From UHGV virus genome UHGV-0140731: a DNA stretch of 20,682 nt, one strand, 5' to 3'. Of this stretch, positions 13,760 to 19,600 are shown one piece after another. Numbering within the stretch: the stretch's first letter is position 1; every line of letters begins with the position of its first letter. A model generated the notes under the pieces. That model had not been told where the DNA came from, ran no database searches, and was given only the letters and a program-made list of their open reading frames with translations. Source of the stretch: a virus. A program made the translations under genes and the position numbers.

Positions 13760-13788
13760 TTGACCTTTTAATCGTTCAGGCTTATAGT
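13760..13788 (+). promoter_or_regulatory. sigma70 promoter candidate (TTGACC-17-TATAGT) for the c4/icd/ant-like operon
   Basis: -35 TTGACC at 13760-13765, 17-nt spacer, -10 TATAGT at 13783-13788, read directly from the sequence. Confidence 0.55.
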
Positions 13789-13919
13789 TCCGCCGTCGTA
13801 GCAAATTCTGCGACCGGGTTTAGCAGCCTGAATACTTACGCGGACAACCGCAGATTTCCGATATTGCGGTATTTTTGTGTCCGTAAACCACGTTACGCCC
13901 GAATTATGGTGGGGCGTGA

Positions 13920-13997
13920 TGGGGAGGCTTCGGCCTGCTGGTTTCGTAAGTGCCAGTCTGCTAACCCCGTCACGTCCTGCCACCTGTTTAGCAGCGG
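13920..13997 (+). ncRNA. Candidate c4-like antisense RNA (immI-type translational repressor)
   Basis: Contains a UUCG-tetraloop hairpin (aggc-ttcg-gcct, 13926-13937) and a 7-bp stem (ctgctaa 13958-13964 / ttagcag 13988-13994). Two short elements, cggcct (13931-13936) and tcgtaagt (13944-13951), are complementary to adjacent target sequence 14016-14028 (acttacgaggccg) covering the icd Shine-Dalgarno. Boundaries are approximate. Confidence 0.4.
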
Positions 13998-14033: not shown

Positions 14034-14255
14034 ATGGTTAATGCCAATCCGTGCGCACGCCAAGAATTCATCTGGCGTTTCTATTCCTGTAAAAAACACC
14101 ACTATCACTTCGTTATCGCAGCAACAGAAGACGAAGCACGCTCTCAATTGCCTGATGGCCCCTGCATTTTTACTGCCCGTTTTTCAACTAACTCGCGCAA
14201 TTCACTTAGTTACTGGAGCCTCCCCTTCTCTGCCGACGTTCAGGGGGGTTTATGA
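14034..14255 (+). CDS. Icd-like small protein (P1 immI 'interference with cell division' analogue), translationally coupled to ant
   Basis: 73-codon ORF; GAGG 8 nt upstream of ATG 14034; stop overlaps the ant start as ATGA (14252-14255). Size and position match P1 icd as I recall it. Confidence 0.55.
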   Translation: MVNANPCARQEFIWRFYSCKKHHYHFVIAATEDEARSQLPDGPCIFTARFSTNSRNSLSYWSLPFSADVQGGL

Positions 14256-15289
14256 AAAAACCTCTCGTCACCCGTAATGAAATAGCCGAAGCGATCGCCC
14301 TGCATACAACCTGTATGCCGACACGGGAGATCCCCGGCGCAATTGCCAACTATTTCATGATAACCAGGCGTTTTTATACCCGAACAGATAAGGCTGTGAT
14401 CAACAGGCTACTGATAGCCGAGATCAGGGATTATTTGATTGAACAAGGACGTCTACGTTACGCAACAGTGGCAGCAGAAATGAGAAAGGAGGCGCGCAGA
14501 ATGACCGGTAATAATTTGAATGTTGAAAAACCAGCACCTGTTGCTTCAGCTACGCCAGCACCAGCCCTGAATGTCATCCCCAACACCGGAGACACAATCG
14601 ACAGCCAAACATTGTTGAAGATGGTCAATGAGGCACGGAAATTATGTAGCGAAAAACCAGTTCGCAACAATGATTTCATTGCCAGAGTTAAGGATGAGCT
14701 TGAAGGAGAAACCTACGAAATTTTCGTAGGTCAAAAAAACGGCGCAGAAATAGATATTATAACCATGACCTACAAACAAGCCCTGCGAGTTGCCGCGCGC
14801 GAGTCAAAAGCGGTCCGCCGTTCGCTGATCGACAAACTAGAAGAATTGCAGCAGGCAAACTCCCCTACCCCATCGATCCCCCAAACATTACCAGAAGCCC
14901 TACGCCTGGCTGCCGAGTTGGCAGAACAGAAATTGCAGCTGGAACAACAGCTGGTGGCCGCAGCCCCTAAAGTCGATTTTGCCGACCGGGTATCAGTGGC
15001 TAATGGAATCCTGATCGGGAACTTTGCAAAGGTCGTTGGACTTAAGCAAAACGCCCTTTTCTCATGGTTGCGCCAGAACGGCATTCTCATGGCTTTTGGT
15101 GCGCGCAAAAACGTACCGCGCCAGCAGTACATTAACGCCGGGTATTTCACGGTGAAAGAAGTGGTGCTGGATGATGAAAATGGCTACCAGATACGGCTGA
15201 CGCCCCAATTAACGGGTAAAGGCCAGCAGTGGTTAACTCGCAAGCTACTTGATGCTGGCTTGTTAAAACCAGTGGCGTCCTTGTCTTAA
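14252..15289 (+). CDS. ant: Phage antirepressor Ant (C-terminal KilAC/ANT domain)
   Basis: 345-codon ORF; C-terminal ~140 aa (IPQTLPEALRLAAELAEQK...GNFAKVVGL...GKGQQWLTRKLLDAGLL) form the ANT/KilAC domain and are paralogous to the C-terminus of the downstream KilA. Confidence 0.8.
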   Translation: MKKPLVTRNEIAEAIALHTTCMPTREIPGAIANYFMITRRFYTRTDKAVINRLLIAEIRDYLIEQGRLRYATVAAEMRKEARRMTGNNLNVEKPAPVASATPAPALNVIPNTGDTIDSQTLLKMVNEARKLCSEKPVRNNDFIARVKDELEGETYEIFVGQKNGAEIDIITMTYKQALRVAARESKAVRRSLIDKLEELQQANSPTPSIPQTLPEALRLAAELAEQKLQLEQQLVAAAPKVDFADRVSVANGILIGNFAKVVGLKQNALFSWLRQNGILMAFGARKNVPRQQYINAGYFTVKEVVLDDENGYQIRLTPQLTGKGQQWLTRKLLDAGLLKPVASLS

Positions 15290-15698
15290 CGTATTCAGAC
15301 CAAGATTTGCCATAAATTACAGGCATGTGTACGATATGCCCAACCCTGTTTTTCAGGGGAGGCGCAACGTTATGCGGGGGTTATGAACTCCTGGATGCGT
15401 AGCCTCCAGACAGAAAAAACCCTCGCCACAACGTTGCATGGAGGCAACCAGCGAGGGCATTCCTTATGTCTGATCAACAAGAGGATAGCCGCAAGCAGTT
15501 GCTGTTGCAAGTGTGCGGAGCTTCGTAATGACTCTTCAAAAAGCTTGCAAGTGGATTGTGACCAACATCATTGTTCCTGTCATCATCGGAGCGTCAAGTT
15601 CTGTGTTGGCATCAGTGATTGCCTCACTTCTCCACATTGCATAACAACATTGGAGGGCGTTAGTTCCGCAGTGTAACAGCAGCGCGTTGCGCCCGAAC

Positions 15699-15734
15699 AG
15701 GCCACAGGGTAAAACCTGTGGCCTTTTTCGTTTT
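15699..15734 (+). terminator. Rho-independent terminator
   Basis: aggccacagg-gtaaaa-cctgtggcct (10-bp GC-rich stem) followed by ttttcgtttt. Confidence 0.65.
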
Positions 15735-15843
15735 AGCCAGCCACAAATCCACATTGAAAAACGCCTTATACAAAAAAACCTGCCAGCGAACTGACAGGTT
15801 TCTGAGCAGATCGACCAACCCGATCTGGATCGGACTGGAAAAA

Positions 15844-15929: not shown

Positions 15930-16730
15930 ATGCAACAAACATTCAATGCGGATATGAATATATCAAACCTTCATCAAAATGTCGATCCTTCAACCACTCT
16001 GCCCGTTATTTGTGGTGTTGAAATTACGACCGACCGCGCTGGCCGTTACAACCTTAATGCTCTACACAGAGCGAGCGGACTCGGTGCCCATAAAGCGCCA
16101 GCTCAATGGCTAAGAACGCAGTCAGCCAAACAGCTCATCGAAGAGCTTGAAAAAGAAACTATGCAGAATTGCATAGTTTCGTTCGAAGGTCGTGGCGGCG
16201 GCACTTTTGCCCATGAATTGCTCGCTGTGGAATACGCAGGCTGGATTTCTCCCGCATTTCGGCTGAAGGTAAACCAGACATTTATCGACTATCGAGCCGG
16301 AAGATTACAACCTGCTATTCCGCAGAGTCTCCCTGAAGCTCTCCGTTTGGCTGCCGACCTGGCAGAGCAAAAGCAACGGCTGGAGCAAAAAATGCTTATG
16401 GATGCACCTAAAGTCGAATTCGCCGAACGCGTTGCTACCGCCAGCGGGGTTCTAATCGGCAACTATGCCAAAGTGCTCGGCCTGGGCCAAAACTATCTCT
16501 TCACCTGGTTGCGTGATAACGGAATTCTGATCGCAACCGGTGAACGCAGGAACGTCCCCAAACAAGAATACATATCCCGTGGGTACTTCACCCTCAAAGA
16601 AACCGTGATCGATACAAGCAACGGAAGCAGGATTTCTTTCACGACTCGTATAACCGGCAAAGGTCAGCAGTGGCTAATGAAGCGATTGCTTGATGCTGGT
16701 GTGCTGGTACCTGTCGCGGCCACGCGCTAA
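15930..16730 (+). CDS. kilA: KilA (KilA-N domain plus KilAC/ANT C-terminal domain)
   Basis: 266-codon ORF with GGAG 5 nt upstream; C-terminal domain paralogous to Ant; size and position (operator, then kilA, then a 281-codon gene) match the P1 lytic replicon as I recall it. Confidence 0.7.
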   Translation: MQQTFNADMNISNLHQNVDPSTTLPVICGVEITTDRAGRYNLNALHRASGLGAHKAPAQWLRTQSAKQLIEELEKETMQNCIVSFEGRGGGTFAHELLAVEYAGWISPAFRLKVNQTFIDYRAGRLQPAIPQSLPEALRLAADLAEQKQRLEQKMLMDAPKVEFAERVATASGVLIGNYAKVLGLGQNYLFTWLRDNGILIATGERRNVPKQEYISRGYFTLKETVIDTSNGSRISFTTRITGKGQQWLMKRLLDAGVLVPVAATR

Positions 16731-16759: not shown

Positions 16760-17605
16760 ATGCTGGCTAAAGTCACTTTCCTGAGCTGTATAACGATGAG
16801 CGATTTTACTTTTTCTGGCTATGAATTGGCCTGCTTTGTAACACACTCCGGTCTATCCCGTAGCGCCGGGCATATCCTGTCGCAATGTGCAAATCTCGCG
16901 GCAACAACCAGTGAATACTTCATTCACAAGCCTCACCGCATGATTGCGGCAGAAACTGGTTATAGCCAATCAACCGTCGTTCGCGCATTCCGTGAAGCTG
17001 TAAACAAAGGAATCCTGTCGGTAGAGATTGTTATCGGCGAGCACCGTGAACGTCGCGCTAACCTGTACCGGTTTACACCATCCTTTTTGGCCTTTGCTCA
17101 ACAAGCCAAAAATGCGCTAATTGAAAGCAAATTAAAGATCTCTTCAGCCGCAACCAAGGTTAAAGCAGTTCTCGCTAAGACATTGGCTTTATTTGATTTT
17201 TTATCCACACCCCCATGTCAAAATGATACCCCCTCCCCCTGTCAGGATGACGTGGCAATAAAGAATAAGAAGTCACAAGTTAAAAAAACAAAAAGATCAG
17301 TTTCCGGCGGTGCCGGAACGACCAGACTCAAAAAATTGACTTCATGGATCGCTGAGGCAAAAGCAAAGGCTGACAATCTGCGGTTATCCAAAAAACGCGC
17401 TCAAAAACATGAGTTCAAGCAGAAAGTAGAGGCGGCAGCGCGGAAATATGCTTACCTGAAGAACAAGCGTTCTCCTGATATTGGCGGGGTATCAAACTTC
17501 GATAATCTGCCGCATTGCATGACGGTAAACGAAGCTCTTAATGCGGTTTTAGCCAAAAATAAAGATAACGAACAATGGGGTATACCGGCAGGATTCAGAG
17601 GGTGA
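16760..17605 (+). CDS. repL: RepL-like lytic replication protein (HTH-containing)
   Basis: 281-codon ORF immediately after kilA; helix-turn-helix-like segment AAETGYSQSTVVRAFREAVNKGIL. Assignment is by context and size; weak Shine-Dalgarno, start uncertain (ATG 16760 or 16796). Confidence 0.5.
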   Translation: MLAKVTFLSCITMSDFTFSGYELACFVTHSGLSRSAGHILSQCANLAATTSEYFIHKPHRMIAAETGYSQSTVVRAFREAVNKGILSVEIVIGEHRERRANLYRFTPSFLAFAQQAKNALIESKLKISSAATKVKAVLAKTLALFDFLSTPPCQNDTPSPCQDDVAIKNKKSQVKKTKRSVSGGAGTTRLKKLTSWIAEAKAKADNLRLSKKRAQKHEFKQKVEAAARKYAYLKNKRSPDIGGVSNFDNLPHCMTVNEALNAVLAKNKDNEQWGIPAGFRG

Positions 17606-17902: not shown

Positions 17903-18099
17903 TACAATCGTTGCGGGTGCTTGAGGCTATCTGCTTCAGGCATTACCCGAAAAGCAGATAGAAGAAAGCCCCAGATAACATTACGCGTCCTGCAAGACGC
18001 TTAACATTAATCTGAGGCCAATTTCATGCTAGACACATGTAGGTTAGCCTCTTACGTGCCGAAAGGCACGGAGAAGCAGGCTATTGTTAACACCAAGCT

Positions 18100-19600
18100 G
18101 TAATGTCCCCTTTGAACCATTCTAAAATGTCCCCAGACAATTCTCTGGGGGATTTTTCATGATCAAAGAGACTGTTACGATGAGTCATAAGGAACTCCAC
18201 CGACTTCAGATTATTCAGGAACAAGCTGCGGCACGCATTGGCATTTCTATTCGGCAGGTTAAACGTCTGGTGCAACGGTATAGAAATGAAGGGCCTTCTG
18301 GTCTGGTTTCCCACCGACGTGGAAAGCGTCCTAATAATTCCTTTTCTACTGAATTCAGAGCAACAGTAATTTCACTCCTCAAAGGCCGTTACGCTGATTT
18401 TGGACCTACGTTTGCGTGCGAAAAATTGCGCGAGATACACGGTTTATCTTTATCCGTTGAAACTCTCAGAAAGTGGATGATAGAAGAGGGGTTATGGCGT
18501 GAACGCCGTCGTAAAATTGCCCGTATATATCAACGCCGCATGCGACGACCATCTTACGGTGAACTGATCCAGATTGATGGCTCACCTCATGACTGGTTTG
18601 AAAATCGAGGCCCCAGATGTACACTGATCGTTTTCATTGATGATGCCACCAGTGCGTTGATGGCGTTGCGTTTTGTGCCTGCTGAAACAACCCGGGCTTA
18701 CATGGAAACCCTCCGGGGTTACCTTAATGATCATGGCGTACCGCTCGCTCTCTACTCTGATAGACACAGTATATTCAGGGTAAATAACCCAGAGCGGGAA
18801 GGTGAGCTGACCCAGTTCACTCGTGCGATAAAGACACTGGGCATCGAGCCAATCCATGCCAACAGCCCGCAGGCAAAAGGGCGGGTAGAGCGCGCCAATC
18901 AGACACTACAGGACAGGCTGGTCAAAGAAATGCGGCTTCAGAATATCAGTGATATTGAAACAGCAAATGCATGGTTGCCGACCTTTATTGAAGCCTATAA
19001 CAACCGGTTCGCTACGTCGCCTCGTACTACTGATAATGCTCATCTTGATGTGCACCATTCTGAAGAGGAACTGGGTTATATCTTCAGCCTACAGGCGAAG
19101 CGCGTTCTGTCTAAAAATCTCACTTTCCAGTACAAAAGCAGTGCGTTTCAGGTACGCAGTGAGGGCCGGGGATATCGACTTAGGCATTCGGTTGTTACTG
19201 TATGCGAGAACTTTGACGGTGAAATTAACGTTCTGTATGACGGGAAAGCGCTGGGCTGGGAAAAGTATGTTGATGGCCCGGAGCCTATACCACCGGATGA
19301 TGAAAAGAGTGTCCATGAACGAGTGGATAATGCCCGTATTGATTTACGCTCAAAATACTATGTTAAACCTAAAGCTGACCATCCCTGGCTTACGCGCCGA
19401 ACGCAAAGTCATCAGCAAGTTAAGCCCCCGAAGTTACCTAAAAAGAAGCCTGATCCCGATAAAAAAGATTGAAACCAAGATCGATTCGGTTGAGTGCATA
19501 TCCATTCATAGGGTAGATTCTTAAGTCGCGTTTCTGGTGTTCATTTTCGGGTGGTTTGTTACTTGTTTTACCGGGGATATGCCAGAAACGCGCTGAGTCA
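18100..19600 (+). mobile_element. Insertion sequence carrying a DDE transposase (ends not defined)
   Basis: Single transposase ORF flanked by non-coding DNA; no clean terminal inverted repeats could be defined by eye, so boundaries are approximate. Confidence 0.3.
18159..19472 (+). CDS. DDE transposase (rve/integrase-core type; IS481- or ISNCY-like)
   Basis: 437-codon ORF with N-terminal HTH (IGISIRQVKRLVQRY) and catalytic-core motifs (LIQIDGS..., LYSDRHSIF, SPQAKGRVERANQTLQDRL); GGGGGA upstream of the ATG. Confidence 0.8.
   Translation: MIKETVTMSHKELHRLQIIQEQAAARIGISIRQVKRLVQRYRNEGPSGLVSHRRGKRPNNSFSTEFRATVISLLKGRYADFGPTFACEKLREIHGLSLSVETLRKWMIEEGLWRERRRKIARIYQRRMRRPSYGELIQIDGSPHDWFENRGPRCTLIVFIDDATSALMALRFVPAETTRAYMETLRGYLNDHGVPLALYSDRHSIFRVNNPEREGELTQFTRAIKTLGIEPIHANSPQAKGRVERANQTLQDRLVKEMRLQNISDIETANAWLPTFIEAYNNRFATSPRTTDNAHLDVHHSEEELGYIFSLQAKRVLSKNLTFQYKSSAFQVRSEGRGYRLRHSVVTVCENFDGEINVLYDGKALGWEKYVDGPEPIPPDDEKSVHERVDNARIDLRSKYYVKPKADHPWLTRRTQSHQQVKPPKLPKKKPDPDKKD

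Follow-up and report, generated by a model that had tools for sequence, protein, structure and literature searches.

A putative diverged ldr/rdl-type toxin-antitoxin cassette between the ant and kilA genes of a P1-like phage-plasmid

The ldr/rdl type I toxin-antitoxin loci of Escherichia coli K-12 (LDR-A to -D), arranged as chromosomal tandem repeats, are the described systems closest to the locus analysed here. Translation of the toxin gene ldrD has been proposed to be coupled to that of a leader ORF, ldrX, and to be blocked by the antisense RNA RdlD (PMC4147584, PMC8167048), a coupling model still termed unconfirmed in a 2014 review (PMC4147584). Toxins of the Fst/Ldr superfamily have as their signature a conserved Trp that follows the helix and precedes a charged tail (PMC2887945), and share a P/D/S/T-XXX-G motif within the transmembrane segment (PMC7472228). 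The K-12 LDR-D locus is reported in PMC5367252 to cause no post-segregational killing. In a survey with peptide HMMs, Ldr was absent from mobile elements (PMC5367252), and Fozo et al. described ldr-rdl as having no reported homology to plasmids and little evidence of horizontal transfer (PMC2887945).

The window, a stretch of 20,682 nucleotides from virus genome UHGV-0140731, belongs to a P1-like plasmid prophage of Escherichia. Rfam models identify elements of its immI region (c4-a1b1 at 13782-13834 and C4 RNA at 13902-13987), and comparison with annotated relatives and with phage P1 gives the gene order icd, ant (14252-15289), kilA (15930-16730) and repL (16760-17605). The P1 gene ant1 ends at 49731, and P1 becomes homologous to the window again at 49738, the counterpart of window position 15772. 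The plus-strand cassette at 15290-15771, which extends from the ant stop codon to the P1-homologous control region of kilA, is thus an insert of 482 bp relative to P1. Megablast and distant blastn searches of 50,697 phage records gave no match to it beyond the P1 kilA flank. At ≥97% identity it is found in 21 PLSDB plasmids (20 of Escherichia albertii/E. coli and one of Salmonella), about 4% of the 512 PLSDB plasmids that have a P1-type kilA region, and in 10 of 5,426 complete E. coli genomes. The toxin ORF discussed below is left without annotation in all 21 plasmid records.

A profile built from K-12 ldrA-C matches the insert twice with nhmmer, at 15341-15517 (E 7.3e-9) and at 15688-15740 (E 1.8e-5), and the two matches are colinear with the profile. 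The blocks conserved with K-12 LDR-A/B/C are GAGGCGCAAYGTT..GCGGGGG, ATAGCCGCAA…GTTG…TTGCAA, which corresponds to the rdl promoter on the minus strand, and TGCGCCCGAA together with the terminator. The order of parts is also that of the K-12 loci: a promoter, a 5' hairpin, a GGCGCA element and an opposite-strand Rdl gene in the 5' UTR are followed by a 20-codon leader, a 35-38-aa toxin, a 3' UTR that pairs with the toxin start, a UGCGCC element and a terminator. As in the LDR loci, the predicted toxin mRNA is in the range of 370-400 nt, with homologous 5' UTR and 3' UTR/terminator. These two colinear matches, the fold stability reported below (z = -7.4) and the retention of the toxin frame in diverged relatives place the arrangement beyond chance. 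We consider it probable, on the strength of sequence comparison, that the locus is a diverged type I toxin-antitoxin cassette of the LDR family carried by a P1-like phage-plasmid.

Most of the visible parts had been read from the bare sequence in a preliminary description and are recovered here: a pair of short ORFs between ant and kilA, overlapping in a TAATG, with a GGAG 7 nt upstream of the second one, a candidate promoter before them and a terminator after them. For the toxin mRNA, the predicted promoter (TTGCCA-17-TACGAT, 15307-15335) agrees with the consensus at 9 of 12 positions in a scan, and its position suggests a transcription start near 15342. The -35 box is identical (TTGCCA) in relative L050. 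A -10 box of the TAnnAT type, identified by eye and not scored, precedes the 5' hairpin in all the relatives inspected and in K-12 ldrA. This hairpin, a helix of the minimum free energy (MFE) structure, lies at 15344-15358 (CCCUG/CAGGG); K-12 ldrA has at the same place a hairpin of different sequence (GCCGG/CCGG). At the other end, the intrinsic terminator (15699-15734) is composed of a hairpin at 15699-15724 followed by TTTTTCGTTTT, and is homologous to the K-12 ldr terminator, which has the form GGCCGCAGGGG…CCUGCGGCC(U)n.

The plus-strand RNA 15342-15740 has a predicted folding energy of -171.5 kcal/mol, compared with -124.3±6.4 for shuffled sequences (z = -7.42), a stability equal to that of K-12 ldrA mRNA (z = -7.45), whose architecture matches that of the window RNA. 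The fold is closed by a 10-bp MFE helix between the 5' element GGCGCAACGU at 15361-15370, which falls within the first nhmmer match to K-12 ldr (15341-15517), and the 3' element GCGUUGCGCC at 15684-15693, which adjoins the terminator and which we place inside the second match (15688-15740). The closing core GGCGCA/UGCGCC shows essentially no variation and is paired in each of the ten family members. Upstream of the 3' closing element, a stretch of the 3' UTR (15650-15683) pairs with the end of the leader and the start of the toxin ORF (15498-15539) and would mask the toxin Shine-Dalgarno (SD) sequence and AUG, through the MFE helices 15498-15509:15672-15683, 15514-15522:15662-15670, 15527-15530:15658-15661 and 15532-15539:15650-15657. 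In the equivalent helices of the family alignment, numbered 4 and 5, seven pairs show compensatory changes. Over the whole alignment of ten sequences RNAalifold proposes 57 pairs, 22 of which display compensatory double changes. The cells of the named structure are 91% paired, compared with 35-53% when the partners are slid by 1-3 columns, a percentage that is inflated as the consensus structure derives from the same alignment as the covariation count. Double-sided changes number 22, compared with 4-7 in the slid structures, and the observed values were reached by 0 of 500 shuffles.

The first ORF of the pair (ORF1, MSDQQEDSRKQLLLQVCGAS) is an ldrX-like leader of 20 codons on the plus strand, from the ATG at 15466 to the TAA at 15526-15528. 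It is preceded by the SD sequence GAGGG at 15453-15457 and its stop codon overlaps the ATG of the toxin ORF. K-12 ldrA and the Lelliottia locus L046 have also leaders of 20 codons that end on the toxin ATG (ATATGA), so that the end of the leader abuts the toxin start in the window, in L046 and in ldrA. The leader frame continues over the toxin ORF, in a mok-like manner, in L045, L059, L050 and L060, and is fused in frame with the toxin in L049. The start is the constant feature: in every family member a start codon preceded by GAGGG or GGGGG is found at -59 to -64 from the toxin ATG. Like ldrX, ORF1 begins in the target of the candidate antisense RNA, whose footprint includes its AUG and SD sequence, and ends on the toxin start. 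This conservation of the leader start in all lineages gives comparative support to the ldrX coupling model.

The second ORF (ORF2, MTLQKACKWIVTNIIVPVIIGASSSVLASVIASLLHIA) extends on the plus strand from the ATG at 15528 to the TAA at 15642-15644, with the SD sequence GGAG at 15517-15520, and codes for the toxin candidate, a hydrophobic peptide of 38 aa. The conservation and codon substitutions across relatives by which the preliminary description would have this ORF judged speak for a real gene. Its frame is kept in seven distinct relatives, with 47-54% identity where measured, and pairwise dN/dS values are 0.19-0.35 at dS of about 0.85-1.9, with one pair at 0.51. The ORF2 frame is under purifying selection. 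ORFs of 37-38 aa are present in five lineages, with invariant M1, A6-C7-K8-W9, G21, A28-S29, H36 and A38, which can be summarised in the pattern M..ACKW…G…AS…H.A of a small peptide family that lacks annotation.

Assignment of this peptide to the Ldr toxins is a different matter from assignment of the locus. Searches of Pfam, NCBIfam and PHROGs found nothing meaningful for ORF1, ORF2 or the 97-aa ORF of another frame (see below), and no Pfam or NCBIfam family matched ORF2 at E≤10. Homology to Ldr peptides was not detected either by BLASTP against LdrA (E 0.51) or by hhalign of the peptide family against Ldr (probability 8.8%). ORF2 ends in …SVIASLLHIA, and its relatives in …LAHFHLA; the sole Trp, W9, lies on the N-terminal side, and the charged tail and C-terminal Trp of the Fst/Ldr superfamily are absent. 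The peptide has in common with LdrA, in register, the residues MTL, P17, G21 and S29, including a PXXXG motif, P17-V-I-I-G21, that aligns with P17-I-L-A-G21 of LdrA. All members of the peptide family have G21; P0002, P0005 and L066 also retain the proline, which is replaced by Gln in L045, L059 and L061, a difference from the superfamily motif. We therefore do not file the ORF2 peptide in the Ldr toxin family, of which it is unrecognisable as a member, and would assign the locus to ldr/rdl by its RNA scaffold and organisation.

On the minus strand, 15475 to 15412, a candidate gene for an Rdl-like antisense RNA of about 64 nt is recognised by a sub-threshold Rfam match, by its fold and by its conservation. 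Of all 4,227 Rfam families, rdlD (RF01813) gave the best match below threshold, with 18.4 bits and E 0.55, on the expected strand and at the expected position, covering the full model (1-66) at 15414-15475 minus; the score is below the gathering threshold of 50 bits and the family is thus absent from the scan at that threshold. The size and placement of the candidate are those of the cis-antisense Rdl RNAs, which have about 60-67 nt and lie opposite the 5' UTR, upstream of the toxin ORF and clear of it; 52 nt separate the 5' end of the candidate from the toxin ATG downstream, similar to the 47 nt of K-12. Its fold resembles that of K-12 RdlA, with a single-stranded 5' tail complementary to the leader AUG, a stem (15457-15451/15426-15420) lying over the leader SD sequence, and a run of six U (15419-15414). 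A stem of 9 bp and the U-run are kept in 11 loci with compensatory changes, one pair being exchanged between UA, CG and UG. The sequence of the 5' tail is variable across the family, as expected of a specificity determinant, and it differs here from that of the K-12 Rdl RNAs, hence cross-talk with the host Rdl RNAs is by inference unlikely.

The predicted promoter of this RNA, at 15510-15482 on the minus strand, consists of TTGCAA (15510-15505), a spacer of 17 nt and TATCCT (15487-15482), 6 nt before G15475; the annotated 5' end of K-12 rdlA has TTGTAA-17-TATTCT-6-G. It agrees with the consensus at 8 of 12 positions, under the threshold of the scan, and lies in ATAGCCGC…GTTG…TTGCAA, which is longer than any other conserved block in the family alignment. 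An antisense RNA of about 150 nt starting from minus-strand promoter-like sites at 15597-15570 and 15583-15555 was also considered, and was dropped because its fold is unremarkable (z = -1.3) and because the promoter conserved in the family is TTGCAA-17-TATCCT. The antisense gene, the long-range pairing that would hide the toxin SD sequence and AUG, and the LDR homology are additions to the preliminary description.

Two other type I systems invite comparison. On paper, the cassette has in common with hok/sok of plasmid R1 and its mok leader a stable, highly folded mRNA of about 400 nt with a 5'-3' fold-back, a toxin whose translation needs an upstream or overlapping leader, a short antisense RNA aimed at the leader start, and a location on mobile elements. 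It differs in that there is no sequence relationship, the 38-aa peptide being unrelated to Hok (about 50 aa), and the Rfam sok model (RF01794) scores only 14.2 bits (E 1.2) at 15376-15530 against a gathering threshold of 59. A sok RNA is found elsewhere in the window, at 17915-18085 (Rfam, 115.9 bits). The Fst/RNAII system (par of pAD1) also combines a small single-helix membrane peptide and a PXXXG motif with presence on mobile elements; however, the Fst antisense RNA is encoded at the 3' end, whereas it lies here in the 5' UTR.

Relatives of the cassette come from two sources, a distant blastn search against plasmids and an exhaustive peptide search, which together provide all the real intermediates. 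The former revealed L045, a full homologue with 74% identity on a 4.46-kb ColE1-type plasmid of Pantoea agglomerans, L046 and L047, LDR-scaffold loci on plasmids of Lelliottia and Klebsiella aerogenes that code for a different peptide of 30 aa, and L049, a canonical annotated Ldr on an E. coli IncFIA plasmid. The latter, a HMMER search of ORF2 against 1.84 billion representative proteins, yielded one diverged homologue, P0002 (53% identity, E 1.1e-5). P0003-P0005 were added by a profile search and two further peptides by a pattern scan of metagenomes. The contigs of these homologues have genes of plasmid or phage type: MobC/NikA, a PriCT_2/DUF5906 primase with a resolvase, and a phage portal protein with VapE. 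Every relative locus that was found has a complete LDR scaffold. Tblastn of the 38-aa peptide against plasmids returned near-identical copies only. A pattern of the 5' element in viral contigs retrieved nothing but canonical ldr, P1-like copies that are near-identical, and chance matches in a methylase-like gene, and a two-block pattern in genome contigs only canonical Escherichia/Shigella ldr and one chance match.

Literature searches on the peptide motifs and on Ldr in P1-like phage-plasmids gave nothing relevant, and we found no published description of the ORF2 peptide or of an ldr/rdl-type module in these elements. The presence of such a module in P1-like phage-plasmids, where it is a single copy, matters in view of the survey that found none on mobile elements, as do its relatives on plasmids of Pantoea (ColE1-type), Lelliottia and Klebsiella and on metagenomic contigs that resemble plasmids or phages. 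Tentatively, the LDR RNA scaffold may be a mobile modular chassis that exchanges unrelated or hyper-diverged membrane peptides and spreads horizontally by way of phage-plasmids, mobilisable small plasmids and further mobile elements; we see this as an attractive reading, a little short of one that we would defend. It would count three or more classes of toxin: Ldr (35 aa, with the Trp and the charged tail), the 30-aa MTFKEALLLAVVTSVVGPVLVALIRHFFKF type and the 37-38-aa ACKW…HLA type. If true, it would contradict both the absence of Ldr from mobile elements (PMC5367252) and the scarcity of horizontal transfer (PMC2887945), and would give the P1-like prophage an extra addiction or abortive-infection module beside its immunity and lytic-replicon switch. 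Divergence of the toxin hides loci of this type from searches with peptide profiles, but their RNA scaffold can still be recognised, which suggests looking for type I toxins by scaffold and not by peptide.

We privilege the following model for the cassette, all the mechanistic steps of which we infer from homology and structure; demonstrated by sequence comparison are the homology of the scaffold, its covariation-backed fold, the conservation of the antisense gene and leader start, and the purifying selection on the toxin frame. An mRNA of about 395 nt would be transcribed from the promoter at 15307-15335 and end at the terminator at 15699-15734. The full-length mRNA would be closed by the pairing of 15361-15370 with 15684-15693, with the toxin SD sequence and AUG (15517-15530) buried by the 3' UTR (15650-15683) and the leader SD sequence also paired. 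The 38-aa toxin would be made only while ribosomes translate the 20-codon leader (15466-15528). The antisense RNA of about 64 nt (15475 to 15412, minus strand), fully complementary to the leader SD sequence and AUG, would block translation of the leader and hence of the toxin, and would probably trigger cleavage of the duplex. The antisense RNA is presumably unstable and the mRNA stable; when the supply of the former stops, by plasmid loss or transcription shut-off, the persisting mRNA would be translated and the hydrophobic peptide would insert in the inner membrane, leading to arrest or death. In a low-copy plasmid prophage the outcome could be post-segregational killing or protection of the abortive-infection type. 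Addiction, abortive infection and a phage-specific use are thus candidate roles of the cassette, which may be a second maintenance or defence module of phage-plasmids beside the immunity region. The leader-coupled small membrane toxin proposed in the preliminary description gains support from the ldr/rdl homology, from the ldrX coupling of the literature and from the purifying selection on ORF2.

The peptide without the Fst/Ldr signature (PMC2887945) could also be seen as the trace of an LDR locus in decay, no longer toxic, in a segment that would act at most as a terminator or spacer between the ant operon and kilA/repL. The strong terminator at 15699-15734 would indeed shield kilA from ant read-through, IS elements disrupt 5 of the 21 plasmid copies, and the cassette is present in only about 4% of the plasmids that have a P1-type kilA region. 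This does not explain why, on unrelated mobile elements, diverged loci retain the same tail-less type of peptide as an open frame subject to purifying selection (dN/dS 0.19-0.35 at dS>1), nor why the promoters, leader start, antisense gene and all the long-range helices are intact in the window, with compensatory changes across the family, and the cassette complete in 16 of the 21 plasmids. We regard a relic as unlikely. Less probable still is that ORF2 codes for a membrane protein serving the phage, in lysis timing, superinfection exclusion or host killing like kil and icd, expressed at induction by read-through of the derepressed c4-icd-ant operon, the antisense RNA acting only as a silencer during lysogeny and the whole not being an addiction module. 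The position of the cassette in the control region of immunity and of the lytic replicon, next to icd and kilA, which are annotated as host-toxic phage genes, fits such a role, and no terminator separates the ant stop codon (15289) from the cassette, so that read-through from immI would carry ORF1 and ORF2. Yet the read-through RNA would retain both closing elements, 5' and 3', as well as the anti-SD pairing, the cassette has its own promoter and terminator, and cassettes of this type occur on small mobilisable plasmids and other elements that have no ant or kilA neighbours, which argues for a function independent of the P1 context.

The longest ORF of the interval is neither ORF1 nor ORF2 but one of 97 aa at 15383-15676, and its relative frame is open to +137 in L050 and L060, which might suggest that this ORF, or one in yet another frame, is the real gene and that ORF1 and ORF2 are due to chance. 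Its openness is a by-product of ORF2: T at the second codon position of ORF2 (NTN codons for hydrophobic residues) falls on the third position of the 97-aa frame and excludes stop codons. The frame closes in relatives L045 and L059, at +71 and +83 of the toxin ORF, near-identical copies differ by a 1-bp indel at 15666/15667 that changes its end, Pfam gives no match, and the conserved peptide comes from ORF2. We thus reject the 97-aa ORF as a gene, the chance origin of ORF1 and ORF2 being hardly credible, and concur with the preliminary description, which took this long ORF to be spurious.

The cassette taken as an ldr/rdl-type module is not in the same state in all members of the P1-like lineage. 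The 20 related copies compared in detail represent 12 haplotypes, and ORF2 is intact in 21 of the 21 cassette-bearing PLSDB plasmids. The IS disruptions are compatible with a module that is dispensable as well as with selection against the toxin, and the cassette could be decaying in this lineage. In one lineage an IS1-associated deletion reaches 15320. In four plasmids an IS of 1,095 bp, flanked by a 6-bp duplication of 15510-15515, severs ORF2 from its promoter and leader and spares the antisense gene together with the promoter of that gene. Copies of the intact locus have only synonymous changes in ORF2 (at 15590 and 15593); the only amino acid changes, K8E and I10V, are restricted, in small numbers, to copies separated by an IS from the promoter.

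The genuine hok/sok locus of the window (17915-18160; Rfam sok, 115.9 bits) is without a toxin. Similarity of the sok region to the intact hokD locus L002 ends precisely at the hok ATG (~18085), and the foreign sequence that follows holds an IS ORF (18159-19472) whose 437-aa product resembles a transposase. The hok/sok system has lost its toxin to what looks like an IS insertion, so this element has one type I toxin knocked out and the ldr-like one intact.

Some copies of the ldr-like cassette are disrupted by IS elements. Four plasmids (loci L003, L007, L041, and L042) carry an identical 1,095-bp IS encoding a DDE 'integrase core' transposase, inserted at the position equivalent to window 15510-15515, within the leader ORF and just 5' of the toxin Shine-Dalgarno sequence (SD), with a 6-bp target duplication. 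In loci L005, L009, L010, and L017 an IS1-associated deletion extends up to window 15320; ant is gone, together with the -35 box of the promoter for the toxin. Each type of event separates the toxin promoter from the toxin ORF and keeps the antisense gene whole.

The LDR scaffold is found with different peptides. A 30-aa peptide, MTFKEALLLAVVTSVVGPVLVALIRHFFKF, is encoded in Lelliottia plasmid NZ_CP141607 (L046, 2684-2776) and K. aerogenes plasmid NZ_CP142847 (L047, 2583-2675), in neither of whose records the ORF is annotated. It is a third peptide class, on a scaffold that differs little from canonical LDR. Its leader of 20 codons, LSRQQQDSREQLPLQPKAVI, is similar in frame to the leader ORF1 of the window. 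The 5' portion of the LDR locus is absent from L047; unrelated sequence precedes what is left, and an IS3 transposase gene is found ~800 bp further upstream. E. coli IncFIA plasmid CP088471 (L049, 1857-1964) has an annotated canonical LdrD-like toxin on a full LDR scaffold; its leader start (-60) shares the toxin frame, creating a 55-aa fusion frame.

Partial copies are found also. In Salmonella plasmid NZ_CP077703 and two sister plasmids (L048, ~2500-2562) the locus consists of an Rdl-like hairpin region only, 80% identical to window 15407-15472, the toxin ORF and closing elements being absent from it. Upstream lie genes for a KilAC antirepressor and a RelE/ParE toxin and two hypothetical genes. 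This hairpin is possibly a relic, or else an antisense RNA that stands as an orphan. IMG/VR contig IMGVR_UViG_2529292985_000017 (L027) carries a further interrupted LDR copy, a canonical E. coli ldr broken directly after the rdl region at …GGGGGCTAATCT and continued by unrelated sequence.

Ten related copies have a G>A change at 15513 that converts an in-frame GTG to ATG, 5 codons 5' of the toxin ATG (MRSFV-MTLQ…). K-12 ldrA has, likewise, an in-frame ATG 9 codons upstream. Since the GGAG SD (15517-15520) lies downstream of 15513, position 15528 is the likelier toxin start. Further downstream, the window has G at 15653 where all 20 compared relatives have A, and an extra C at 15666 shared with only 3 of those 20; in the predicted SD:3'-UTR helix the latter position faces the toxin SD. 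A 98-kb metagenomic contig (L062) has both window states.

Elsewhere in the window, the LDR 5' element (…GCAAYGTTGCGGGGGC…) gives weak, non-significant matches at 229-251 and 750-766 (nhmmer E 1.1 and 3). Directly after the cassette, where the P1-homologous region upstream of kilA begins, a terminator-like hairpin (GAAACCTGTCAG…CTGGCAGGTTTTTTT) is found on the minus strand at 15767-15800; because P1 has it too, this hairpin is placed outside the insert.
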